Notes under the pieces: generated by a model
Seen by the model: the letters and a program-made list of their open reading frames with translations, nothing else
The model's database searches: none
What the model was told of the DNA's origin: nothing
Shown here: positions 9,663 through 19,619 of the stretch, one piece after another
How positions within the stretch are numbered: the first letter of the stretch is position 1
Layout: the number at the start of each line of letters is the position of its first letter
Assembly (NCBI RefSeq): GCF_003334765.1
Contig: NZ_QOWT01000005.1
Length of the DNA: 64,000 bases
Direction: 5' to 3' (one strand)
DNA from: Escherichia coli
Lineage (GTDB): Bacteria; Pseudomonadota; Gammaproteobacteria; Enterobacterales; Enterobacteriaceae
Translations under genes and position numbers: made by a program

Positions 9663-11522
9663 ATGAGCAAAGGAACGACCAGCCAGGATGCCCCGTTCGG
9701 GACATTATTGGGCTACGCCCCAGGTGGGGTAGCAATCTACTCTTCAGATTACAGTTCTCTCGATCCGCAGGAATACGAAGATGACGCCGTATTCCGTAGC
9801 TATATCGACGATGAATATATGGGCCACAAATGGCAATGCGTTGAATTTGCTCGCCGTTTTCTCTTTCTGAATTACGGTGTGGTCTTCACTGACGTGGGTA
9901 TGGCGTGGGAGATTTTCTCGCTGCGCTTCCTGCGTGAAGTGGTTAATGACAACATCCTGCCATTGCAGGCATTTCCTAATGGCTCGCCGCGTGCACCGGT
10001 CGCGGGCGCGCTTCTTATCTGGGATAAAGGCGGTGAATTTAAAGACACTGGCCATGTCGCCATCATTACTCAATTGCATGGCAACAAAGTCCGTATTGCG
10101 GAACAGAACGTGATTCATTCCCCGTTGCCGCAAGGGCAACAGTGGACACGCGAGCTGGAGATGGTGGTCGAAAACGGCTGCTATACCCTTAAAGACACGT
10201 TTGATGACACCACCATTCTGGGCTGGATGATCCAGACGGAAGATACCGACTACAGCTTACCGCAGCCGGAAATTGCAGGCGAGCTGCTGAAAATCAGCGG
10301 AGCGCGTCTGGAAAACAAAGGTCAGTTTGACGGTAAATGGCTGGATGAAAAAGATCCGCTACAAAATGCCTACGTGCAGGCCAACGGTCAGGTGATCAAT
10401 CAGGATCCGTATCATTACTACACCATTACCGAGAGCGCAGAGCAGGAGCTGATTAAAGCCACCAACGAGCTGCACCTGATGTATCTTCACGCCACCGACA
10501 AGGTGCTAAAAGATGACAACCTGCTGGCGCTGTTCGACATTCCGAAAATCCTCTGGCCACGTTTGCGTCTCTCCTGGCAGCGTCGCCGTCACCATATGAT
10601 CACCGGTCGTATGGATTTCTGCATGGACGAACGTGGCCTGAAGGTCTACGAATACAACGCCGATTCCGCCTCCTGTCATACCGAAGCGGGCTTGATCCTC
10701 GAACGTTGGGCGGAGCAGGGCTATAAAGGCAACGGCTTCAATCCTGCGGAAGGGCTGATTAACGAACTGGCTGGTGCCTGGAAACACAGTCGTGCACGTC
10801 CGTTTGTCCATATCATGCAGGACAAAGATATCGAGGAAAACTATCACGCGCAGTTTATGGAGCAGGCGCTGCACCAGGCGGGCTTTGAAACGCGTATCTT
10901 GCGTGGGTTGGATGAACTGGGCTGGGATGCTGCCGGGCAACTGATTGATGGGGAAGGGCGACTGGTTAACTGCGTGTGGAAAACCTGGGCGTGGGAAACC
11001 GCGTTTGATCAGATTCGTGAAGTCAGCGACCGTGAGTTTGCTGCGGTGCCGATCCGTACCGGTCATCCGCAAAATGAAGTGCGTCTTATCGACGTATTGC
11101 TGCGCCCGGAAGTGCTGGTCTTTGAACCTCTGTGGACTGTGATCCCCGGCAACAAAGCGATTCTGCCGATCCTCTGGTCGCTGTTCCCGCACCATCGTTA
11201 CCTGCTGGATACCGATTTCACTGTTAATGATGAACTGGTAAAAACAGGTTACGCAGTGAAACCGATCGCCGGTCGCTGTGGCAGTAACATCGACCTCGTC
11301 AGCCATCATGAAGAGGTGCTGGACAAAACCAGCGGTAAATTTGCCGAGCAGAAAAACATCTATCAGCAACTGTGGTGTTTGCCGAAAGTGGACGGTAAAT
11401 ACATTCAGGTATGTACCTTCACCGTTGGCGGCAACTACGGTGGGACGTGTTTGCGCGGTGATGAATCACTGGTCATCAAAAAAGAGAGTGATATTGAACC
11501 GTTAATTGTGGTGAAAAAGTAA
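9663..11522 (+). CDS. gss: Bifunctional glutathionylspermidine synthetase/amidase
   Basis: 619 aa; N-terminal CHAP amidase domain and C-terminal ATP-grasp synthetase domain; synteny. Confidence 0.95.
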   Translation: MSKGTTSQDAPFGTLLGYAPGGVAIYSSDYSSLDPQEYEDDAVFRSYIDDEYMGHKWQCVEFARRFLFLNYGVVFTDVGMAWEIFSLRFLREVVNDNILPLQAFPNGSPRAPVAGALLIWDKGGEFKDTGHVAIITQLHGNKVRIAEQNVIHSPLPQGQQWTRELEMVVENGCYTLKDTFDDTTILGWMIQTEDTDYSLPQPEIAGELLKISGARLENKGQFDGKWLDEKDPLQNAYVQANGQVINQDPYHYYTITESAEQELIKATNELHLMYLHATDKVLKDDNLLALFDIPKILWPRLRLSWQRRRHHMITGRMDFCMDERGLKVYEYNADSASCHTEAGLILERWAEQGYKGNGFNPAEGLINELAGAWKHSRARPFVHIMQDKDIEENYHAQFMEQALHQAGFETRILRGLDELGWDAAGQLIDGEGRLVNCVWKTWAWETAFDQIREVSDREFAAVPIRTGHPQNEVRLIDVLLRPEVLVFEPLWTVIPGNKAILPILWSLFPHHRYLLDTDFTVNDELVKTGYAVKPIAGRCGSNIDLVSHHEEVLDKTSGKFAEQKNIYQQLWCLPKVDGKYIQVCTFTVGGNYGGTCLRGDESLVIKKESDIEPLIVVKK

Positions 11523-11613
11523 TACATGTTGTAGCAACCCCGTACTGATTATGAAGAATAATCAGCACGGGGATTAATCAAAACATTCAACATTTATATA
11601 TTCCAATATTTAT

Positions 11614-11633
11614 TTAATATATGAATATATTAA
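11614..11633. promoter_or_regulatory. Perfect 9-bp inverted repeat TTAATATAT-GA-ATATATTAA in the gss-pitB intergenic region; candidate operator
   Basis: Seen directly; a near-identical copy occurs at 24976-24995. Confidence 0.3.
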
Positions 11634-11809
11634 CCAGTGGAATACCTGTGTTTTGATTATTTCTAAAGATTTTGAATGAATGCTTATTGTCTGATACACA
11701 AGAAATAACACGCTTTTTATCGTTAAAAAATGATATTTCACTTTGCCCATGCCGTTAAAGTCACTGATAATGCGTCCGTTCGTAAATTCAAAATGGCGTA
11801 ATCTAATAT

Positions 11810-13309
11810 ATGCTAAATTTATTTGTTGGCCTTGATATATACACAGGGCTTTTGTTATTACTTGCTCTGGCATTTGTGTTGTTCTACGAAGCAATCAATG
11901 GTTTTCATGACACGGCGAATGCGGTGGCAACCGTTATTTATACTCGTGCCATGCAACCACAACTTGCTGTGGTGATGGCGGCATTTTTTAATTTTTTTGG
12001 CGTGTTATTGGGCGGACTTAGCGTTGCCTATGCCATTGTCCATATGTTGCCAACCGATTTGTTGCTGAATATGGGGTCAACCCACGGTCTGGCGATGGTC
12101 TTTTCCATGCTGCTGGCGGCGATTATCTGGAACCTGGGAACGTGGTTCTTTGGTTTACCGGCCTCCAGTTCGCACACCTTGATTGGTGCGATTATCGGCA
12201 TCGGTTTAACCAACGCGCTGTTAACCGGCTCATCGGTGATGGATGCGTTAAACCTGCGTGAAGTGACCAAAATTTTCTCCTCGCTGATTGTTTCCCCTAT
12301 CGTCGGCCTGGTCATTGCGGGTGGTCTGATTTTCCTGCTGCGCCGTTTCTGGAGCGGGACGAAAAAGCGTGACCGTATTCACCGCATTCCGGAAGATCGC
12401 AAAAAGAAAAAAGGCAAACGTAAGCCGCCATTCTGGACGCGTATTGCGCTGATTGTTTCCGCTGCGGGCGTGGCGTTTTCGCACGGCGCTAACGACGGGC
12501 AGAAAGGGATCGGCCTGGTGATGCTGGTACTGGTGGGGATTGCCCCTGCTGGCTTCGTCGTCAATATGAACGCGTCCGGCTATGAAATTACCCGTACCCG
12601 CGATGCCGTCACCAACTTCGAACACTACCTGCAACAGCATCCTGAACTGCCGCAGAAGTTGATTACGATGGAACCTCCATTGCCTGCGACATCGACTGAT
12701 GGCACGCAAGTAACAGAGTTTCACTGTCATCCGGCAAATACCTTTGATGCGATTGCGCGCGTTAAAACGATGCTGCCAGGCAATATGGAAAGTTACGAGC
12801 CGTTAAGCGTGAGTCAGCGCAGCCAGCTGCGCCGCATTATGCTGTGCATCTCTGATACCTCCGCGAAGCTGGCGAAACTGCCAGGCGTCAGTAAAGAAGA
12901 CCAGAACCTGCTGAAAAAACTGCGCAGCGATATGTTAAGCACCATTGAGTACGCACCGGTGTGGATCATCATGGCGGTAGCACTGGCGCTCGGCATCGGC
13001 ACCATGATTGGCTGGTGTCGTGTAGCGATGACCATCGGTGAGAAGATTGGTAAGCGCGGCATGACGTATGCGCAAGGCATGGCGGCACAAATGACGGCGG
13101 CAGTGTCTATCGGCCTTGCCAGTTATATTGGGATGCCCGTCTCCACAACACACGTCCTCTCGTCTGCAGTAGCAGGGACGATGGTGGTGGACGGCGGTGG
13201 GTTACAGCGTAAAACGGTAACCAGCATCCTGATGGCGTGGGTGTTTACTTTACCGGCGGCGATTTTTCTTTCTGGTGGGTTGTACTGGATAGCATTGCAG
13301 TTGATTTAA
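11810..13309 (+). CDS. pitB: Low-affinity inorganic phosphate transporter (PiT family)
   Basis: 499 aa polytopic membrane protein with duplicated GANDGQK-type PiT signature ([20 protein letters not shown]). Confidence 0.9.
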
Positions 13310-13357
13310 CCTTCCTGAAAATGCCCGGTCCTGGCGATCGGGCATTTCCATTTTTGA

Positions 13358-14050
13358 CTAGTGATAACCACGCGCGGTCATAAAATCCGTAATCGCTTTT
13401 TCTGCATCAATCAGCACCTTTTCCAGTGGCTGATTAGCATCGATATCAACCAGTTGTGCACCACCAAAGGTTAACTGTGGCGTTATGGCTATCTTTCTTG
13501 CCAGCGATTCCCTTTTGTGGTCAGGCTTACGCGCGCAGGCCACGTCTAGATCGACATTGAGTTTGATGACCAGATCAGGTTTATGGCTCGCCATCCAGTG
13601 AAACGCTTTACGTTCCTGGCTTGCCAGCCATGAGACAAAACGACCACCTTCAATGTTAGGTGGGAACACTGTACCATCGTAAGCGCCAGGAATTTGGTCC
13701 TGAGGATAACGGTCGGTTAGAACAATTAACCCGCGACGACGACAGGCAAGCATATGACGAAAGCGCAGTAAGCGACGGGCGACAAACGCTGTAATTACCA
13801 GCGCCGGAACAGGGCCAGGCAATTTTTTTGCTGTTTTCACCTGATTTCGTTCAATTGTTTTATGTAAGGATTTTCCCATGAACGGTAATTTTGTCACTGC
13901 ACGACCGACATTTCCGGCCTGTTTTCCTAAATGAACTCTTTCGGCAGCACCATATTTTTCGACAACGGTAATGAGATGTTCACACACCGTTGACTTGCCT
14001 GAACCATCGCTACCAATAACGGCAATTAATGGAGGTGTTATTGACTGCAT
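13358..14050 (-). CDS. yghT: P-loop NTPase of unknown function (YghT/YghS/YghR paralogue family)
   Basis: 230 aa; Walker [11 protein letters not shown]; shared motifs DRYPQ and ARKPDH with the two downstream paralogues. Confidence 0.8.
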
Positions 14051-14223
14051 GAATATATCCTTTAATTTAAATATCCATTAAAAATATTTATTTGGTTAAT
14101 ATGTTTTTATGAAAGCGTAATTCAGGTCAATGTCACAATTAACCATTGTCACAATAAGGTTGAACGGATATTCTGAGCACGGACCACGTAATATTCAATA
14201 CATTATTTGCTGCCGGGTTTTTC

Positions 14224-14937
14224 GTGAATCAACGTAATATGTCAATAATTAATTCCACGCCAGTGCGTGTTATTGCCATTGTAGGATGTGATGGTTCAGG
14301 TAAATCGACCCTCACGGCAAGCCTGGTAAATGAACTGGCAGCAACAATGCCAACAGAACACATTTATCTCGGGCAATCGTCCGGGCGAATTGGCGAATGG
14401 ATTTCACAGCTCCCTGTTATTGGCGCACCTTTTGGGCGTTATCTGCGAAGTAAAGCGGCACATGTGCACGAAAAGCCCTCCACACCGCCTGGCAATATGA
14501 CTGCGCTGGTTATCTATCTGCTTTCCTGCTGGCGGGCGTACAAGTTTCACAAAATGTTGTGTAAAAACCAGCAAGGCTATCTGCTCATCACCGACCGCTA
14601 CCCGCAGGTTGAAGTGCCGGGTTTCCGCTTTGATGGCCCGCAATTGGCAAAAACCACGGGCGGTAACGGTTGGATAAAAATGTTAAGGCAGCGCGAGCTG
14701 AAGCTGTACCAATGGATGGCGTCTTATTTGCCCGTATTGTTGATTCGTCTTGGCATTGATGAACAAACCGCGTTTGCGCGTAAACCTGACCACCAACTGG
14801 CAGCGTTACAGGAAAAAATCGCCGTTACGCCGCAACTGACATTCAATGGCGCAAAGATCCTTGAACTGGATGGTCGGCAACCAGCCGATGAAATTCTGCA
14901 AGCGTCACTACGCGCAATTCACGCTGCGCTTTCCTGA
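14224..14937 (+). CDS. yghS: P-loop NTPase of unknown function (paralogue 2)
   Basis: 237 aa; Walker A VGCDGSGKST; DRYPQ and ARKPDH motifs. Confidence 0.8.
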   Translation: MNQRNMSIINSTPVRVIAIVGCDGSGKSTLTASLVNELAATMPTEHIYLGQSSGRIGEWISQLPVIGAPFGRYLRSKAAHVHEKPSTPPGNMTALVIYLLSCWRAYKFHKMLCKNQQGYLLITDRYPQVEVPGFRFDGPQLAKTTGGNGWIKMLRQRELKLYQWMASYLPVLLIRLGIDEQTAFARKPDHQLAALQEKIAVTPQLTFNGAKILELDGRQPADEILQASLRAIHAALS

Positions 14938-14968
14938 TCACCAAAATGGATAGGGGATGATTTAACGA

Positions 14969-15727
14969 ATGGACGCACTACAAACACAAACTGTTAATAG
15001 TACAACCGCGCCGCAGCCCAACTACATTCCGGGGCTGATTGCGGTGGTCGGGTGTGATGGCACCGGTAAATCCACACTGACCAATGACCTGGTGAAATCG
15101 CTGCAACAACACTGGCAAACCGAGCGGCGCTATCTGGGGCTGCTCTCCGGCGAAGACGGCGACAAAATCAAACGATTGCCGTTGGTTGGTGTCTGGCTCG
15201 AACGGCGACTGGCGGCCAAATCCTCGAAAACCCAAAGCATGAAAACCAAATCTCCGGCGCTATGGGCGGCGGTGATTATGTACTGCTTCTCGCTGCGAAG
15301 AATGGCGAATCTACGCAAGGTTCAGCGACTGGCGCAAAGTGGCGTTCTGGTGGTCAGCGATCGCTTCCCGCAGGCTGAAATTTCGGGCTTTTATTATGAC
15401 GGACCGGGGATCGGCGTCGAACGTGCGACCGGGAAAATCAGCATGTTTCTGGCGCAGCGCGAACGGCGTTTATACCAAAAAATGGCGCAATACCGTCCTG
15501 AATTAATTATTCGTTTGGGGATTGATATTGATACTGCCATCTCCCGCAAGCCTGACCATGACTATGCCGAGCTGCAGGACAAAATCGGCGTCATGTCGAC
15601 GATTGGCTATAACGGCACAAAAATTCTTGAGATTGATTCCAGAGCGCCCTACAGCGAAGTGCTGGAACAGGCACAGAAGGCGGTTTCTCTGGTTGCCATC
15701 GTTTCTGACCGCCGAAGTTTAACTTAA
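14969..15727 (+). CDS. yghR: P-loop NTPase of unknown function (paralogue 3)
   Basis: 252 aa; Walker A VGCDGTGKST; DRFPQ and SRKPDH motifs. Confidence 0.8.
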   Translation: MDALQTQTVNSTTAPQPNYIPGLIAVVGCDGTGKSTLTNDLVKSLQQHWQTERRYLGLLSGEDGDKIKRLPLVGVWLERRLAAKSSKTQSMKTKSPALWAAVIMYCFSLRRMANLRKVQRLAQSGVLVVSDRFPQAEISGFYYDGPGIGVERATGKISMFLAQRERRLYQKMAQYRPELIIRLGIDIDTAISRKPDHDYAELQDKIGVMSTIGYNGTKILEIDSRAPYSEVLEQAQKAVSLVAIVSDRRSLT

Positions 15728-15772
15728 GGCTGGCGGGATACTTTTTACTATCAACGATAAGGTCAGGCTGAA

Positions 15773-17122
15773 TTGGCGGGTTTTAACATCAAACATTGGT
15801 TTGCAGATGGCGCGTTTCGCACCATTATTCGCAATAGCGCCTGGTTAGGCTCCAGTAATGTCGTGAGCGCTTTACTGGGTCTGTTGGCGCTCTCGTGTGC
15901 CGGTAAAGGGATGACGCCCGCCATGTTTGGCGTACTGGTGATTGTACAATCGTACGCCAAGTCGATCAGCGATTTTATTAAGTTTCAGGCATGGCAGCTG
16001 GTGGTTCAGTACGGAACACCAGCATTAACCAACAATAATCCGCAGCAATTCCGCAATGTCGTCTCATTTTCCTTCTCGCTGGATATCGTCAGCGGCGCGG
16101 TGGCGATTGTCGGCGGCATTGCCTTACTCCCTTTTCTTTCCCATTCATTAGGTCTGGATGACCAAAGCTTTTGGCTGGCAGCGCTGTATTGCACGCTCAT
16201 TCCTTCAATGGCTTCCTCCACGCCGACCGGCATTCTGCGTGCGGTAGATCGCTTCGATCTAATTGCTGTACAGCAAGCGACGAAACCTTTTCTGCGCGCA
16301 GCGGGGAGCGTCGTAGCCTGGTATTTTGACTTTGGTTTTGCGGGTTTTGTTATTGCCTGGTACGTGTCGAATCTGGTTGGCGGCACCATGTACTGGTGGT
16401 TTGCCGCGCGCGAATTACGCCGCAGAAATATCCATAACGCCTTCAAATTGAATCTGTTTGAGTCTGCCCGACACATTAAAGGCGCGTGGAGTTTTGTCTG
16501 GTCAACCAACATTGCCCACTCCATCTGGTCGGCGCGTAACTCGTGCAGCACAGTGCTGGTGGGGATCGTGTTAGGACCCGCTGCCGCCGGGTTATTTAAA
16601 ATCGCCATGACATTCTTCGACGCCGCCGGAACGCCAGCGGGTTTACTGGGCAAAAGTTTTTACCCAGAGGTGATGCGTTTAGATCCGCGCACCACCAGAC
16701 CGTGGTTGTTAGGCGTGAAGTCAGGTTTACTGGCGGGCGGAATCGGTATTCTGGTGGCGCTCGCGGTGTTGATCGTCGGCAAGCCGCTTATTTCGCTGGT
16801 GTTTGGCGTTAAGTATCTCGAAGCGTATGACCTGATTCAGGTGATGCTGGGCGCAATTGTGATTTCGATGCTGGGCTTCCCACAGGAGTCATTGCTATTG
16901 ATGGCGGGAAAACAGCGCGCTTTTCTCGTGGCGCAAACCATCGCCTCAATCGGCTACATCGTATTGCTGTTCATGTTCTGTCATCTGTTTGGCGTGCTGG
17001 GAGCAGCGTTTGCTTATTTCGGTGGGCAATGTCTGGATGTGGTGCTCTCGTTAATTCCGACCTTAAAGGCATTTTTTCAGCGCCATTCCTTGCTTTATAA
17101 CGCAGCCGGAGAGAAATCCTGA
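15773..17122 (+). CDS. yghQ: Polytopic membrane protein, MOP/Wzx-like flippase superfamily
   Basis: 449-codon ORF with many hydrophobic helices; apparent TTG start at 15773 (next in-frame ATG would remove the first predicted TM helix); start uncertain. Confidence 0.7.
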   Translation: MAGFNIKHWFADGAFRTIIRNSAWLGSSNVVSALLGLLALSCAGKGMTPAMFGVLVIVQSYAKSISDFIKFQAWQLVVQYGTPALTNNNPQQFRNVVSFSFSLDIVSGAVAIVGGIALLPFLSHSLGLDDQSFWLAALYCTLIPSMASSTPTGILRAVDRFDLIAVQQATKPFLRAAGSVVAWYFDFGFAGFVIAWYVSNLVGGTMYWWFAARELRRRNIHNAFKLNLFESARHIKGAWSFVWSTNIAHSIWSARNSCSTVLVGIVLGPAAAGLFKIAMTFFDAAGTPAGLLGKSFYPEVMRLDPRTTRPWLLGVKSGLLAGGIGILVALAVLIVGKPLISLVFGVKYLEAYDLIQVMLGAIVISMLGFPQESLLLMAGKQRAFLVAQTIASIGYIVLLFMFCHLFGVLGAAFAYFGGQCLDVVLSLIPTLKAFFQRHSLLYNAAGEKS

Positions 17123-17946
17123 TGATGAGAAAATATTTCCCGCTTGAGGCGAGCGAGCGTCTATTTGTTGCAGTTGAAGAAGATGATGTCGTTGATGCAC
17201 AGGTCAGTTTGCCGCCGACTATCGCACTAAGTTGTACCACCGAAATCATCCATGATAATTACGCGTTATGCCTGCAATTCTGGCTCAATGGCGTCAATCG
17301 CCAGGAGTTACTGCGTTTAATATGCAAACAGGCCAAAGGCGATGAGTTGACTGCTGATGAGCGCAAACAATTTAAATACATGCGAGCGCGCTACAAGCAC
17401 CTGCGTTTTGCGCAACGGCTGTATTTAAAGAAGCATCAGGCCGGATTTTTATTCGGCAAAACGACCGTTTTTTTGGGGCGTTTTCAGGACGGTTTTCGTA
17501 ACGGTAAGAAAAATATTGTGTCGTATTACGGCAACTTGTTACGGGTTTATTTAAGCTCTCCGGTCTGGTCGTTGGTGAACTATTCATTACGCCATAGCCA
17601 GTTAGAAAGCGTAAGCGGTTTTATTGCCTATCGGCAAAAGCAAATGCATACCCTGAAAGAGATAATTGCCAAACCGCGACTAACCGGCAGGGAATTTCAT
17701 GATGTGCGAAAAATCATCAGCCAGCAGGTTTCTTATTACGACACCTTAAGATCGCTTGATCCTGAAAATAAAGAGGCGTTACAGATTTCCCGCTTCCTCG
17801 CCGCCATTAATGGCCTGATGGGGGATAAACACGACGACATGGTGGCGGATGATATGGAAAACCGCCAGTCGTATGATGCACCGGTGGCGCTGGATAGCGA
17901 TATTCGCCAGCGCTTAGAGCTGCTGATTTCGCGTTTTCCGCTATAA
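17122..17946 (+). CDS. Hypothetical cytoplasmic protein, no recognisable motifs
   Basis: 274-aa ORF; ATG overlaps yghQ stop (TGATGATG); same strand and tight spacing as flanking genes. Confidence 0.55.
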   Translation: MMRKYFPLEASERLFVAVEEDDVVDAQVSLPPTIALSCTTEIIHDNYALCLQFWLNGVNRQELLRLICKQAKGDELTADERKQFKYMRARYKHLRFAQRLYLKKHQAGFLFGKTTVFLGRFQDGFRNGKKNIVSYYGNLLRVYLSSPVWSLVNYSLRHSQLESVSGFIAYRQKQMHTLKEIIAKPRLTGREFHDVRKIISQQVSYYDTLRSLDPENKEALQISRFLAAINGLMGDKHDDMVADDMENRQSYDAPVALDSDIRQRLELLISRFPL

Positions 17947-17954
17947 CCGGAGCA

Positions 17955-18518
17955 ATGATGTCATCTCGTTTGATTATTGCGCTGATTATCATGCTCTTAG
18001 CCCAGGGTGTGCAGGCACACAATTTCGTCACTGGCAAAACGGTTACCCCCGTTTATATCCAGGAAGGCGGCGAGCTGCTTCTGAATAGCGACGACGAAAT
18101 TCACTACCAAAAGTGGAACAGCACACAGCTGGCGGGAAAAGTCCGCATTATCCAGTATATCGCCGGGCGTAAGTCGGCGAAGAAAAAGAACTCACTGTTA
18201 ATTAAAGCGGTTGAAGCGGCAAACTTTCCGCAGGATCGTTTTCAGCCCACCACCATTGTGAACACCGATGATGCCATCTTTGGTACTGGCTATTTTGTCG
18301 TTGGCAAAATCGAAAAAAATAAACGCCGCTATCCGTGGGCGCAATTCGTTATTGACGGCAATGGACTGGGACGCGTTGCCTGGCGGTTGCCGGAGCAGAG
18401 TTCAACCATTCTGGTGCTGAATAAAGACGGGCAAATTCAGTGGGCAAAGGACGGCAGCCTGACGCCGGAAGAGGTAGATCATGTCATTGCGCTGGCGCAG
18501 AAACTGATCAATGAATAA
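17955..18518 (+). CDS. YtfJ-family periplasmic protein (signal peptide)
   Basis: 187 aa; N-terminal signal peptide (LIIALIIMLLAQGVQA/HN); sequence pattern strongly reminiscent of E. coli YtfJ as I recall it (not verified). Confidence 0.6.
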   Translation: MMSSRLIIALIIMLLAQGVQAHNFVTGKTVTPVYIQEGGELLLNSDDEIHYQKWNSTQLAGKVRIIQYIAGRKSAKKKNSLLIKAVEAANFPQDRFQPTTIVNTDDAIFGTGYFVVGKIEKNKRRYPWAQFVIDGNGLGRVAWRLPEQSSTILVLNKDGQIQWAKDGSLTPEEVDHVIALAQKLINE

Positions 18519-18548
18519 AAAATTCAAAGGATTGAGGGTGTTAGTGAG

Positions 18549-19619
18549 ATGAAGCTGGTTGAACACTACATCATGCGTGGTACGCGCCGTCTGGTGCTGA
18601 TTATCGTCGGTTTTCTGATCTTTATTTTCGCCAGCTACTCCGCACAGCGTTATCTGACCGAAGCGGCAAATGGGACCTTAGCTCTTGATGTTGTGCTGGA
18701 TATCGTTTTCTACAAAGTGCTGATTGCACTGGAGATGTTGTTACCTGTTGGTCTGTATGTGTCAGTTGGCGTGACGCTAGGGCAGATGTATACCGACTCG
18801 GAAATTACCGCTATCTCTGCGGCGGGGGGCAGTCCGGGACGCTTGTACAAAGCCGTTCTTTATCTGGCGATACCGCTAAGTATTTTTGTCACCCTTCTGT
18901 CGATGTATGGTCGGCCGTGGGCTTATGCGCAGATTTATCAACTGGAGCAACAGTCGCAGTCGGAGCTGGATGTTCGCCAGTTGCGGGCAAAGAAATTTAA
19001 CACTAACGATAACGGACGAATGATCCTTTCGCAGACGGTTGATCAGGATAATAATCGCCTGACTGACGCGCTGATTTATACTTCTACTGCCAATCGAACC
19101 CGCATTTTCCGCGCCCGTTCGGTTGATGTGGTTGACCCATCACCTGAGAAACCGACCGTTATGTTGCATAACGGGACCGCCTATCTTCTCGATCATCAGG
19201 GGCGTGACGACAACGAACAGATCTACCGTAATCTGCAATTACATCTGAATCCGCTGGATCAAAGCCCTAACGTCAAACGCAAAGCAAAATCGGTCACGGA
19301 GCTGGCGCGCTCCGCCTTTCCTGCCGATCATGCCGAACTGCAATGGCGACAAAGCCGTGGCCTGACAGCATTGTTGATGGCGCTGCTGGCCATTTCATTA
19401 AGTCGGGTAAAACCGCGGCAAGGGCGATTTTCAACGTTATTGCCACTGACGTTGCTGTTTGTTGCCATTTTTTATGGCGGCGACGTCTGCCGTACGCTGG
19501 TGGCTAACGGTGCGATTCCCCTCATTCCTGGTTTGTGGTTAGTACCCGGACTCATGCTAATGGGCCTGCTGATGCTGGTCGCACGCGACTTCTCTTTGCT
19601 GCAGAAATTTTCCCGATGA
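18549..19619 (+). CDS. LptF-like permease (YjgP/YjgQ family), paralogue not part of the canonical lptFG locus
   Basis: 356 aa; N-terminal TM helices, a periplasmic domain, then C-terminal TM helices, the typical LptF/LptG layout. Confidence 0.7.
   Translation: MKLVEHYIMRGTRRLVLIIVGFLIFIFASYSAQRYLTEAANGTLALDVVLDIVFYKVLIALEMLLPVGLYVSVGVTLGQMYTDSEITAISAAGGSPGRLYKAVLYLAIPLSIFVTLLSMYGRPWAYAQIYQLEQQSQSELDVRQLRAKKFNTNDNGRMILSQTVDQDNNRLTDALIYTSTANRTRIFRARSVDVVDPSPEKPTVMLHNGTAYLLDHQGRDDNEQIYRNLQLHLNPLDQSPNVKRKAKSVTELARSAFPADHAELQWRQSRGLTALLMALLAISLSRVKPRQGRFSTLLPLTLLFVAIFYGGDVCRTLVANGAIPLIPGLWLVPGLMLMGLLMLVARDFSLLQKFSR

Follow-up and report, generated by a model that had tools for sequence, protein, structure and literature searches.

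The three paralogous genes yghT, yghS and yghR lie next to genes for sphingolipid synthesis in a 64,000-nucleotide stretch of Escherichia coli DNA (contig NZ_QOWT01000005.1 of assembly GCF_003334765.1; hereafter, the window). On balance, we believe that their products are non-redundant, catalytically competent ATP-dependent kinases and that the three kinases, the flippase YghQ and a CHAD-like protein of 274 residues together make up the head-group module of the proteobacterial sphingolipid locus of E. coli type. We also hold it somewhat probable that YghT, YghS and YghR phosphorylate the head group of a ceramide at the cytoplasmic face of the membrane, and that the product is then flipped by YghQ and extracted by the permease pair LptF2G2. 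The module would replace the Cpg module of Caulobacter.

The genes occupy positions 13358-15727 of the window. yghT (13358-14050, minus strand) codes for 230 residues, yghS (14224-14937, plus strand, with a GTG start) for 237 and yghR (14969-15727, plus strand) for 252. These coordinates are those of the RefSeq annotation of E. coli B771, with which positions 13000-23000 are 100% identical. YghT aligns end to end with the other two proteins, at 36% and 34% identity. The open reading frames and the alignment thus bear out a preliminary description of this DNA, which had noted three P-loop paralogues of 230-252 residues here, with yghT inverted relative to yghS-yghR; yghT and yghS diverge across an AT-rich spacer of 173 bp (14051-14223). 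A sigma-70-like site pointing toward yghS (14146-14174) is a consensus match only, and a promoter and terminator scan of the yghT, yghS and yghR region returned nothing above the shuffled expectation.

Sequence motifs shared at equivalent positions had also been described. They do fall in equivalent alignment columns, but their spelling differs among the paralogues. The Walker A motif reads G-[S/C]-D-G-[S/T]-G-K-S-T, the second motif is DRYPQ in YghT and YghS but DRFPQ in YghR, and the third is ARKPDH in YghT and YghS but SRKPDH in YghR. A DG dipeptide and a Glu are also common to the three proteins. Conservation in orthologues, on which the preliminary description had made its reading depend, was checked with 201 sequences from the three orthogroups (T, S and R), and G.DG.GKST, DR.PQ, the Asp of DG, the Glu and RKPDH were each at least 90% conserved in every orthogroup. 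Therefore, the motifs are not a product of chance, and none of T, S and R is a pseudokinase. In a 51-sequence alignment of the wider kinase family, R114, P116 and R174 are invariant. The isoelectric points of YghT, YghS and YghR are high (9.6-9.9), and it is in an insert of about 30 residues between the P-loop helix and DRY that the basic residues cluster; in YghT, this substrate-side insert holds 18 Lys or Arg residues versus 4 Asp or Glu residues.

The predicted fold of YghT, YghS and YghR is that of thymidylate kinase (TMPK). When the PDB was searched with a profile built from 51 family members, thymidylate kinases matched at E = 8e-12, with the P-loop, DRY and lid region covered in three separate stretches. 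An AlphaFold2 (AF2) model of YghT, with a predicted local distance difference test score (pLDDT) of 92.5 and a predicted TM-score (pTM) of 0.88, retrieved thymidylate kinases almost throughout when compared with the PDB by Foldseek (E down to 5.8e-9; TM-score 0.55-0.70). Both searches thus converge on the three-layer P-loop fold with a lid, and they identify DRYPQ with the DRY motif of TMPK and place RKPDH in the lid region. The G[SC]DG[ST]GKST and DR[YF] motifs fit the acidic P-loop, GxxGxGK[ST], and the DR[YH] of dTMP kinases. The fold class that had been surmised, that of small nucleotide or substrate kinases, is therefore upheld by structure prediction and fold search, with thymidylate kinases as the best solved relatives; the sulfotransferase fold named beside it was rejected by the Foldseek search.

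RefSeq names yghT and yghS "dTMP kinase", whereas yghR is called "hypothetical" or "ATP-binding protein". That the three proteins are genuine dTMP kinases strikes us as extremely unlikely. The names, and weak matches to the dTMP-kinase family TIGR00041 (E = 1e-5 to 4e-8), speak for it, but the NCBIfam scan scored them at 24.2, 25.2 and 33.0 bits, YghT and YghS both at about 24-25, where the curated cut-off is 83.25, and Pfam returned only P-loop noise for YghT, with Thymidylate_kin (PF02223) at an independent E-value (i-E) of 0.53. The insert of about 30 residues and the invariant PQ, DG and RKPDH are particular to this family, and three ancient paralogues inside a lipid locus fit a housekeeping enzyme poorly. 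In addition, E. coli has a canonical tmk elsewhere. Because the scores lie far below the family cut-off, the RefSeq name is probably an over-annotation.

Other assignments were considered and rejected. For the PPK2 family, considered because of the CHAD-like partner, no family model gave support: PPK2 was not among the NCBIfam matches listed at E up to 1 (for YghS, the best 25 of 52) nor among the best 60 PDB profile matches. Models of ABC (ATP-binding cassette)-transporter ATPases, of which LptB is an example, matched over only about 25 residues around Walker A. Matches to anti-phage defence proteins in PADLOC were mostly confined to the P-loop (E of 8.8e-5 or weaker), and none was found for the 274-residue protein. 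The fold also bears on whether the three proteins could be regulatory or motor NTPases that couple ATP hydrolysis to flipping by YghQ or extraction by LptF2G2, or form a heteromeric scaffold. No ATPase dedicated to the LptF2G2 pair is encoded in the sphingolipid locus, and three conserved paralogues could form a complex. However, the predicted fold is that of TMPK and not that of an ABC nucleotide-binding domain, and two features typical of phosphotransferases, the DRY-type motif and the Arg of the lid region, are retained. Moreover, in Caulobacter it is LptB that serves LptF2G2 (bioRxiv 10.64898/2026.04.12.717747). We regard a role as NTPases as very unlikely.

A locus scan with one genome per species returned 79 loci, in which the orthologues of T, S and R were mapped by tblastn. 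T, S and R form separate orthogroups across these 79 species of gamma- and beta-proteobacteria, which include Enterobacterales, Xanthomonadales (Dyella, Rhodanobacter and Luteibacter), Halioglobus, Methylotenera, Rhodocyclaceae, Nitrotoga and many metagenome-assembled genomes. All three kinase genes were present in 64 of the 79 loci, and the layout, with S and R co-oriented and T opposite, was kept in 62. Orthologues are 46-100% identical, as against 34-36% for the paralogues. In a neighbour-joining tree, T, S and R were each monophyletic; S and R are sister clades, T branches outside this pair, and the longer, fused relatives are more distant still. Directly after the Walker A helix, each group also has a conserved signature of its own: YLGQSSGxIG in S, YLGLxSGEdGDKIK in R and a stretch of 11 residues in T. 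Judged from these alignments, the triplication is ancient and not a recent tandem expansion, and it represents three different, retained functions rather than redundancy. The three genes had been called triplicated, which is right as to the three paralogues but not in the sense of a recent event, given the separately conserved orthogroups, each with its own residues after Walker A.

Downstream of yghR, yghQ (15773-17122, plus strand) codes for a Wzx-like flippase of the MOP superfamily and accompanies the kinases in 52 of the 79 loci. It is followed on the same strand by the gene for the 274-residue CHAD-like protein (17122-17946; hypothetical in the annotation), by a gene for a YtfJ-family protein (17955-18518; RefSeq start at 17958) and by paralogues of lptF (18549-19619) and lptG (19616-20695). 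The latter are of the LptF2 type, a permease of sphingolipid loci (bioRxiv 10.64898/2026.04.12.717747), and of the LptG2 type, and occurred with the kinases in 39 of the 79 loci; work on Caulobacter implicates LptF2/G2 in the export of sphingolipids (bioRxiv 10.64898/2026.04.12.717747). The YtfJ-family protein (TIGR01626, 216 bits) was likewise seen in 39 loci, almost all from Enterobacterales. From yghS to the lptG paralogue, the genes form one string with short or overlapping junctions. This string converges on a minus-strand group composed of aasR (23093-24817; fatty acyl-AMP ligase or acyl-AcpR synthetase), cerR, also called epi (22182-23096; an NAD-dependent reductase and putative ketosphinganine or ceramide reductase), acpR (21902-22150; a specialised acyl carrier protein) and spt (20730-21902; serine palmitoyltransferase; PMC9386255). 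Beyond it lies yghO (25188-26330, plus strand), which codes for a putative N-acyltransferase and candidate bacterial ceramide synthase. Start and stop codons overlap between yghQ and the 274-residue protein gene (17122), lptF2 and lptG2 (19616-19619), acpR and spt (21902) and aasR and cerR (23093-23096), suggesting translational coupling within two convergent operons. Spt, AcpR and AasR of E. coli BL21 have been characterised biochemically, and cerR and yghO were proposed to code for the reductase and the N-acyltransferase (PMC9386255).

On the other side of yghT lies the phosphate transporter gene pitB, upstream of which the gss-pitB intergenic region shows a sharp dip in GC content (0.34, at 11500-12000). 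Since pitB adjoins yghT in only 11 loci (from Escherichia, Pseudocitrobacter, Citrobacter and Hafnia), it is probably a chance neighbour.

The association of the kinases with the sphingolipid genes extends beyond E. coli. spt was found within the retrieved flanks (10 kb) of the kinase genes in 50 of the 79 loci, and spt, cerR and yghO co-localised with T, S and R in 49 of the 64 loci with the full kinase triad. In an independent metagenomic lineage, a yghO-like gene is followed by two kinase genes, a yghQ-like gene and a gene for a protein like the 274-residue CHAD-like one. The earlier suggestion of a link to the lipid made downstream, a ceramide, finds strong support in the synteny seen over 79 species and in the accessory genes accompanying the kinases. 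Because the E. coli locus has neither a CpgB-type kinase nor a CDP-alcohol transferase or nucleotidyltransferase, the only candidates for head-group enzymes that this cluster offers are the three kinases.

To describe the accessory genes, all open reading frames of the loci were clustered and the recurrent families annotated. Non-enteric loci coded for an LpxE-like PAP2 phosphatase (20 loci), a PAP2 protein resembling undecaprenyl-diphosphate phosphatase or PgpB (14 loci), an OlsC/LpxO-like acyl 2-hydroxylase (15 loci) and an LmtA-like lipid A 1-phosphate O-methyltransferase (E = 3.9e-33; 8 loci), the gene for which as a rule immediately precedes T on the upstream side; examples of these accessory genes are found at L065 10730-12082, L069 9093-9974 and L049 7658-8695, the L numbers denoting loci of the scan. 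A GT4 glycosyltransferase was present in 7 loci and an LptA-like protein in 5. In 21 Enterobacterales loci, from Serratia, Pantoea, Erwinia, Mangrovibacter, Sodalis and Rosenbergiella, a paralogue of DgkA (46% identical to E. coli DgkA) directly follows yghO (for instance at L034 14056-14412, L054 7659-8015 and L023 17092-17448); it is absent from the locus in the window. E. coli DgkA phosphorylates ceramide in vitro, and the paralogue is a candidate ceramide kinase. By their homology, these accessory families are enzyme types that make or remodel the phosphate groups of envelope lipids. In 11-13 non-enteric loci, an RND efflux pump, an outer-membrane factor and a further conserved open reading frame stood beside the kinase and PAP2 genes (L060 13254-20648, and also L047, L063 and L068); the pump may serve as an alternative lipid export route.

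A profile search among 1.8 billion representative sequences gave 2157 relatives of the kinases. Many are about 490-500 residues long and carry an extra N-terminal domain fused to the kinase (e.g., the relatives P0162, P0168 and P0173), which in one member, P0217, matches NTP_transf_5. P0217 (978 residues) also has an N-terminal MOP flippase fused to the kinase, and in P0262 (669 residues) the fusion is with a GT4 glycosyltransferase. One fusion relative (L081 5721-9482) lies in a Wzx/Wzy polysaccharide cluster and adjoins a second small P-loop protein with a faint match to AAA_33. Relatives in AFDB come, among others, from Sphingobium (three), Novosphingobium, Zymomonas, Acetobacter, Gluconobacter and Azotobacter, and several of these genera are known sphingolipid producers.

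The polysaccharide clusters raise the question of whether the module could modify some other lipid-linked envelope molecule, such as an undecaprenyl-diphosphate-linked glycan, and stand beside the sphingolipid genes only through a common export machinery. We consider this unlikely. Members of the wider family do occur in Wzx/Wzy/GT4 polysaccharide clusters, a GT4 gene accompanies the module itself in the 7 loci mentioned, and adjacent PAP2 genes resemble those for undecaprenyl-diphosphate phosphatase. That most full-triad loci also contain spt, cerR and yghO argues against it, as does yghO lying directly upstream of the kinases, in a single gene string, in one lineage; moreover, the E. coli cluster holds no glycosyltransferase or polymerase.

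The fusions to nucleotidyltransferase-like domains bear on another possibility, that the kinases act on a soluble precursor, nucleotide-like or a small phosphorylated metabolite, and so yield an activated donor of the head group that another enzyme transfers to ceramide. Consistent with this are the closest solved relatives, which are nucleoside-monophosphate kinases, the NTP_transf_5-like domain fused to many members of the wider family and the conservation in YghT, YghS and YghR of the P-loop Asp and the DRY Arg. In TMPK these two residues contact the nucleotide acceptor. The TMPK acceptor-site residues are uninformative as to a hydroxyl or a phosphate acceptor, the DRY Arg being common to both kinds of kinase with this fold. 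The E. coli cluster lacks a transferase for attaching an activated donor, and the accessory genes code for lipid-phosphate remodelling enzymes. That members of the family are fused to MOP flippases or lie next to them argues for action at the membrane. A soluble acceptor therefore seems to us a minor, rather improbable alternative to phosphorylation of the ceramide itself.

The remaining member of the proposed module, the 274-residue protein, is tied to the kinases more consistently than spt (60 versus 50 of the 79 loci). It is predicted to have an all-helical, CHAD-like fold, in keeping with the helical bundle of CHAD proteins. Its invariant residues are R88, K92, R95, H105, H193, R196 and H237, and such Arg, Lys and His residues are compatible with a predicted binding of polyphosphate. 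CHAD proteins are known to bind inorganic polyphosphate and to associate with polyphosphate kinases of the PPK2 class, which are P-loop enzymes resembling TMPK. NCBIfam gave no match for the protein, nor did sequence-profile searches of the PDB with its family.

For the sphingolipid module, we envisage the following sequence of events. Dihydroceramide would be made by AasR, AcpR, Spt, YghO and CerR at the cytoplasmic face of the inner membrane. The ceramide would then be phosphorylated, the first step possibly being carried out by DgkA or its paralogue, and the three basic kinases would add head-group phosphoryls, each at a different step or position. The CHAD-like protein would bind the anionic (oligo)phosphate head group, after which YghQ would flip the product and LptF2G2, with LptB, would extract it toward the outer membrane. 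We infer that a lipid is the acceptor, as well as the order of the steps and the number and position of the phosphates; the motifs, the fold matches, the three-way orthology, the synteny and the identities of the neighbouring genes are what was observed.

Several findings weigh against this proposal. The nearest characterised relatives of the kinases act on soluble nucleotides and not on lipids, and the wider family, with its 2157 representatives, is also found in Wzx/Wzy polysaccharide clusters. In 29 of the 79 loci there was no spt within the retrieved flanks. The CHAD assignment is not matched by Pfam: CHAD (PF05235) gave no match to the E. coli 274-residue protein or to 18 orthologues, its matches to the homologue P0334 reached i-E values of only 0.19 and 0.34, and hhalign found no similarity between the family and the CHAD region of YgiF (probability 0.2). 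The literature that we searched mentions YghR, YghS and YghT only as uncharacterised ATP-binding proteins and describes neither a native sphingolipid of E. coli nor the one that its relatives make; the remnants of the locus in K-12 have no reported phenotype that points to a function.

As a more tentative extension, to which we assign a low probability, ceramide-1-phosphate could be elongated serially by YghT, YghS and YghR to a pyro-, tri- or oligophosphate head group. The analogy would be with TMPK, which acts on a phosphomonoester, and the CHAD-like protein might hold the growing head group before it is flipped by YghQ. In some lineages, PAP2 phosphatases could trim the chain or an LmtA-like methyltransferase cap it, which is equally tentative. 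This idea comes from the presence of three distinct kinases when dihydroceramide has only two hydroxyls, from the partner with a polyphosphate-binding type of fold, and from the MOP flippase, PAP2 phosphatases and phosphate methyltransferase found in the loci. To our knowledge, all known substrates of MOP flippases are lipid diphosphates. Pyro-, di-, tri- or polyphosphates of ceramide were looked for in the literature, and nothing pertinent was found. Should this extension be correct, a sphingolipid-anchored oligophosphate at the surface of E. coli and many other proteobacteria would represent a new class of membrane lipid.

At least 80% of the 10-kb stretch is present in 4081 of 5426 complete E. 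coli genomes, so that, by this measure, the locus is intact in about three quarters of them. In a K-12-type genome (NZ_CP169633), IS5 lies between a truncated yghQ and yghO (L090 7988-8968; about 16840-25190 of the window), and everything from the 3' end of yghQ through aasR is missing while the three kinase genes are kept. From this arrangement, the K-12 kinases are orphans of a broken locus, the centre of which was lost in an IS5-associated deletion. The genes themselves were already known; the module of kinases, CHAD-like protein and flippase, and its likely role, appear to be undescribed, as the searched literature contained neither a description of the module nor a function for yghR, yghS and yghT. 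If the proposal is correct, a P-loop kinase family of more than 2000 representative sequences would gain its first function, and what is probably a misannotation in RefSeq would be put right. The sphingolipids of Caulobacter bear on sensitivity to polymyxin and detergents and on host recognition (PMC11324152), and an anionic phospho-ceramide in the outer membrane of E. coli would then bear on the same properties.

YghT, YghS and YghR have in common with TMPK (PF02223, TIGR00041) the fold, a GxDGxGKS P-loop, DR(Y/F) after strand 3, the lid-region Arg and a C-terminal "IDAxQP" strand, but they differ in scoring far below the family cut-offs, in the basic insert of about 30 residues, in the PQ, DG and RKPDH motifs and in being three paralogues inside a lipid locus. 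Like the CHAD proteins PptA, the C-terminus of YgiF and the CHAD protein of Ricinus, the 274-residue protein has a predicted CHAD fold, in its case with invariant Arg, Lys and His residues. Unlike in CHAD/PPK2 systems, however, there is no significant Pfam CHAD match and no match of the kinases to a PPK2 model, and the setting is a locus for a membrane lipid, not polyphosphate granules.

LpxK, the lipid A 4'-kinase, is a precedent for a soluble-type P-loop kinase that phosphorylates an envelope glycolipid at the cytoplasmic face. YghT, YghS and YghR show no sequence match to it in the NCBIfam scans, and their lipid would be a ceramide and not lipid A. The enzymes that remodel lipid A phosphates (LpxE, PAP2 phosphatases and LmtA) have homologues among the accessory genes of the module. 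DgkA has an unrelated fold and would supply the step before the TMPK-like kinases, not replace it.

A further parallel is the head-group pathway of Caulobacter, in which the LCB5-type ceramide kinase CpgB acts with CDP-alcohol and nucleotidyl transferases. Homology to CpgB was our first expectation and was rejected: CpgB has an LCB5/diacylglycerol (DAG)-kinase domain with a GGDG motif and no P-loop (PMC10331486), whereas YghT, YghS and YghR have the P-loop TMPK fold and not the DAG-kinase catalytic domain. The E. coli locus has no Cpg homologues, and the 17-gene locus of Caulobacter contains no TMPK-like or CHAD-like gene. The two loci are otherwise homologous, with spt, acpR, aasR, cerR, bCerS, LptF2G2 and a putative flippase in common, and the CpgB/CpgA/C/D module holds the position that YghT, YghS and YghR have in E. 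coli. With its three TMPK-fold kinases, CHAD-like protein and MOP flippase, the proposed E. coli module is distinct from the Cpg pathway; like the Cpg module, it is expected to make an anionic phospho-sphingolipid.

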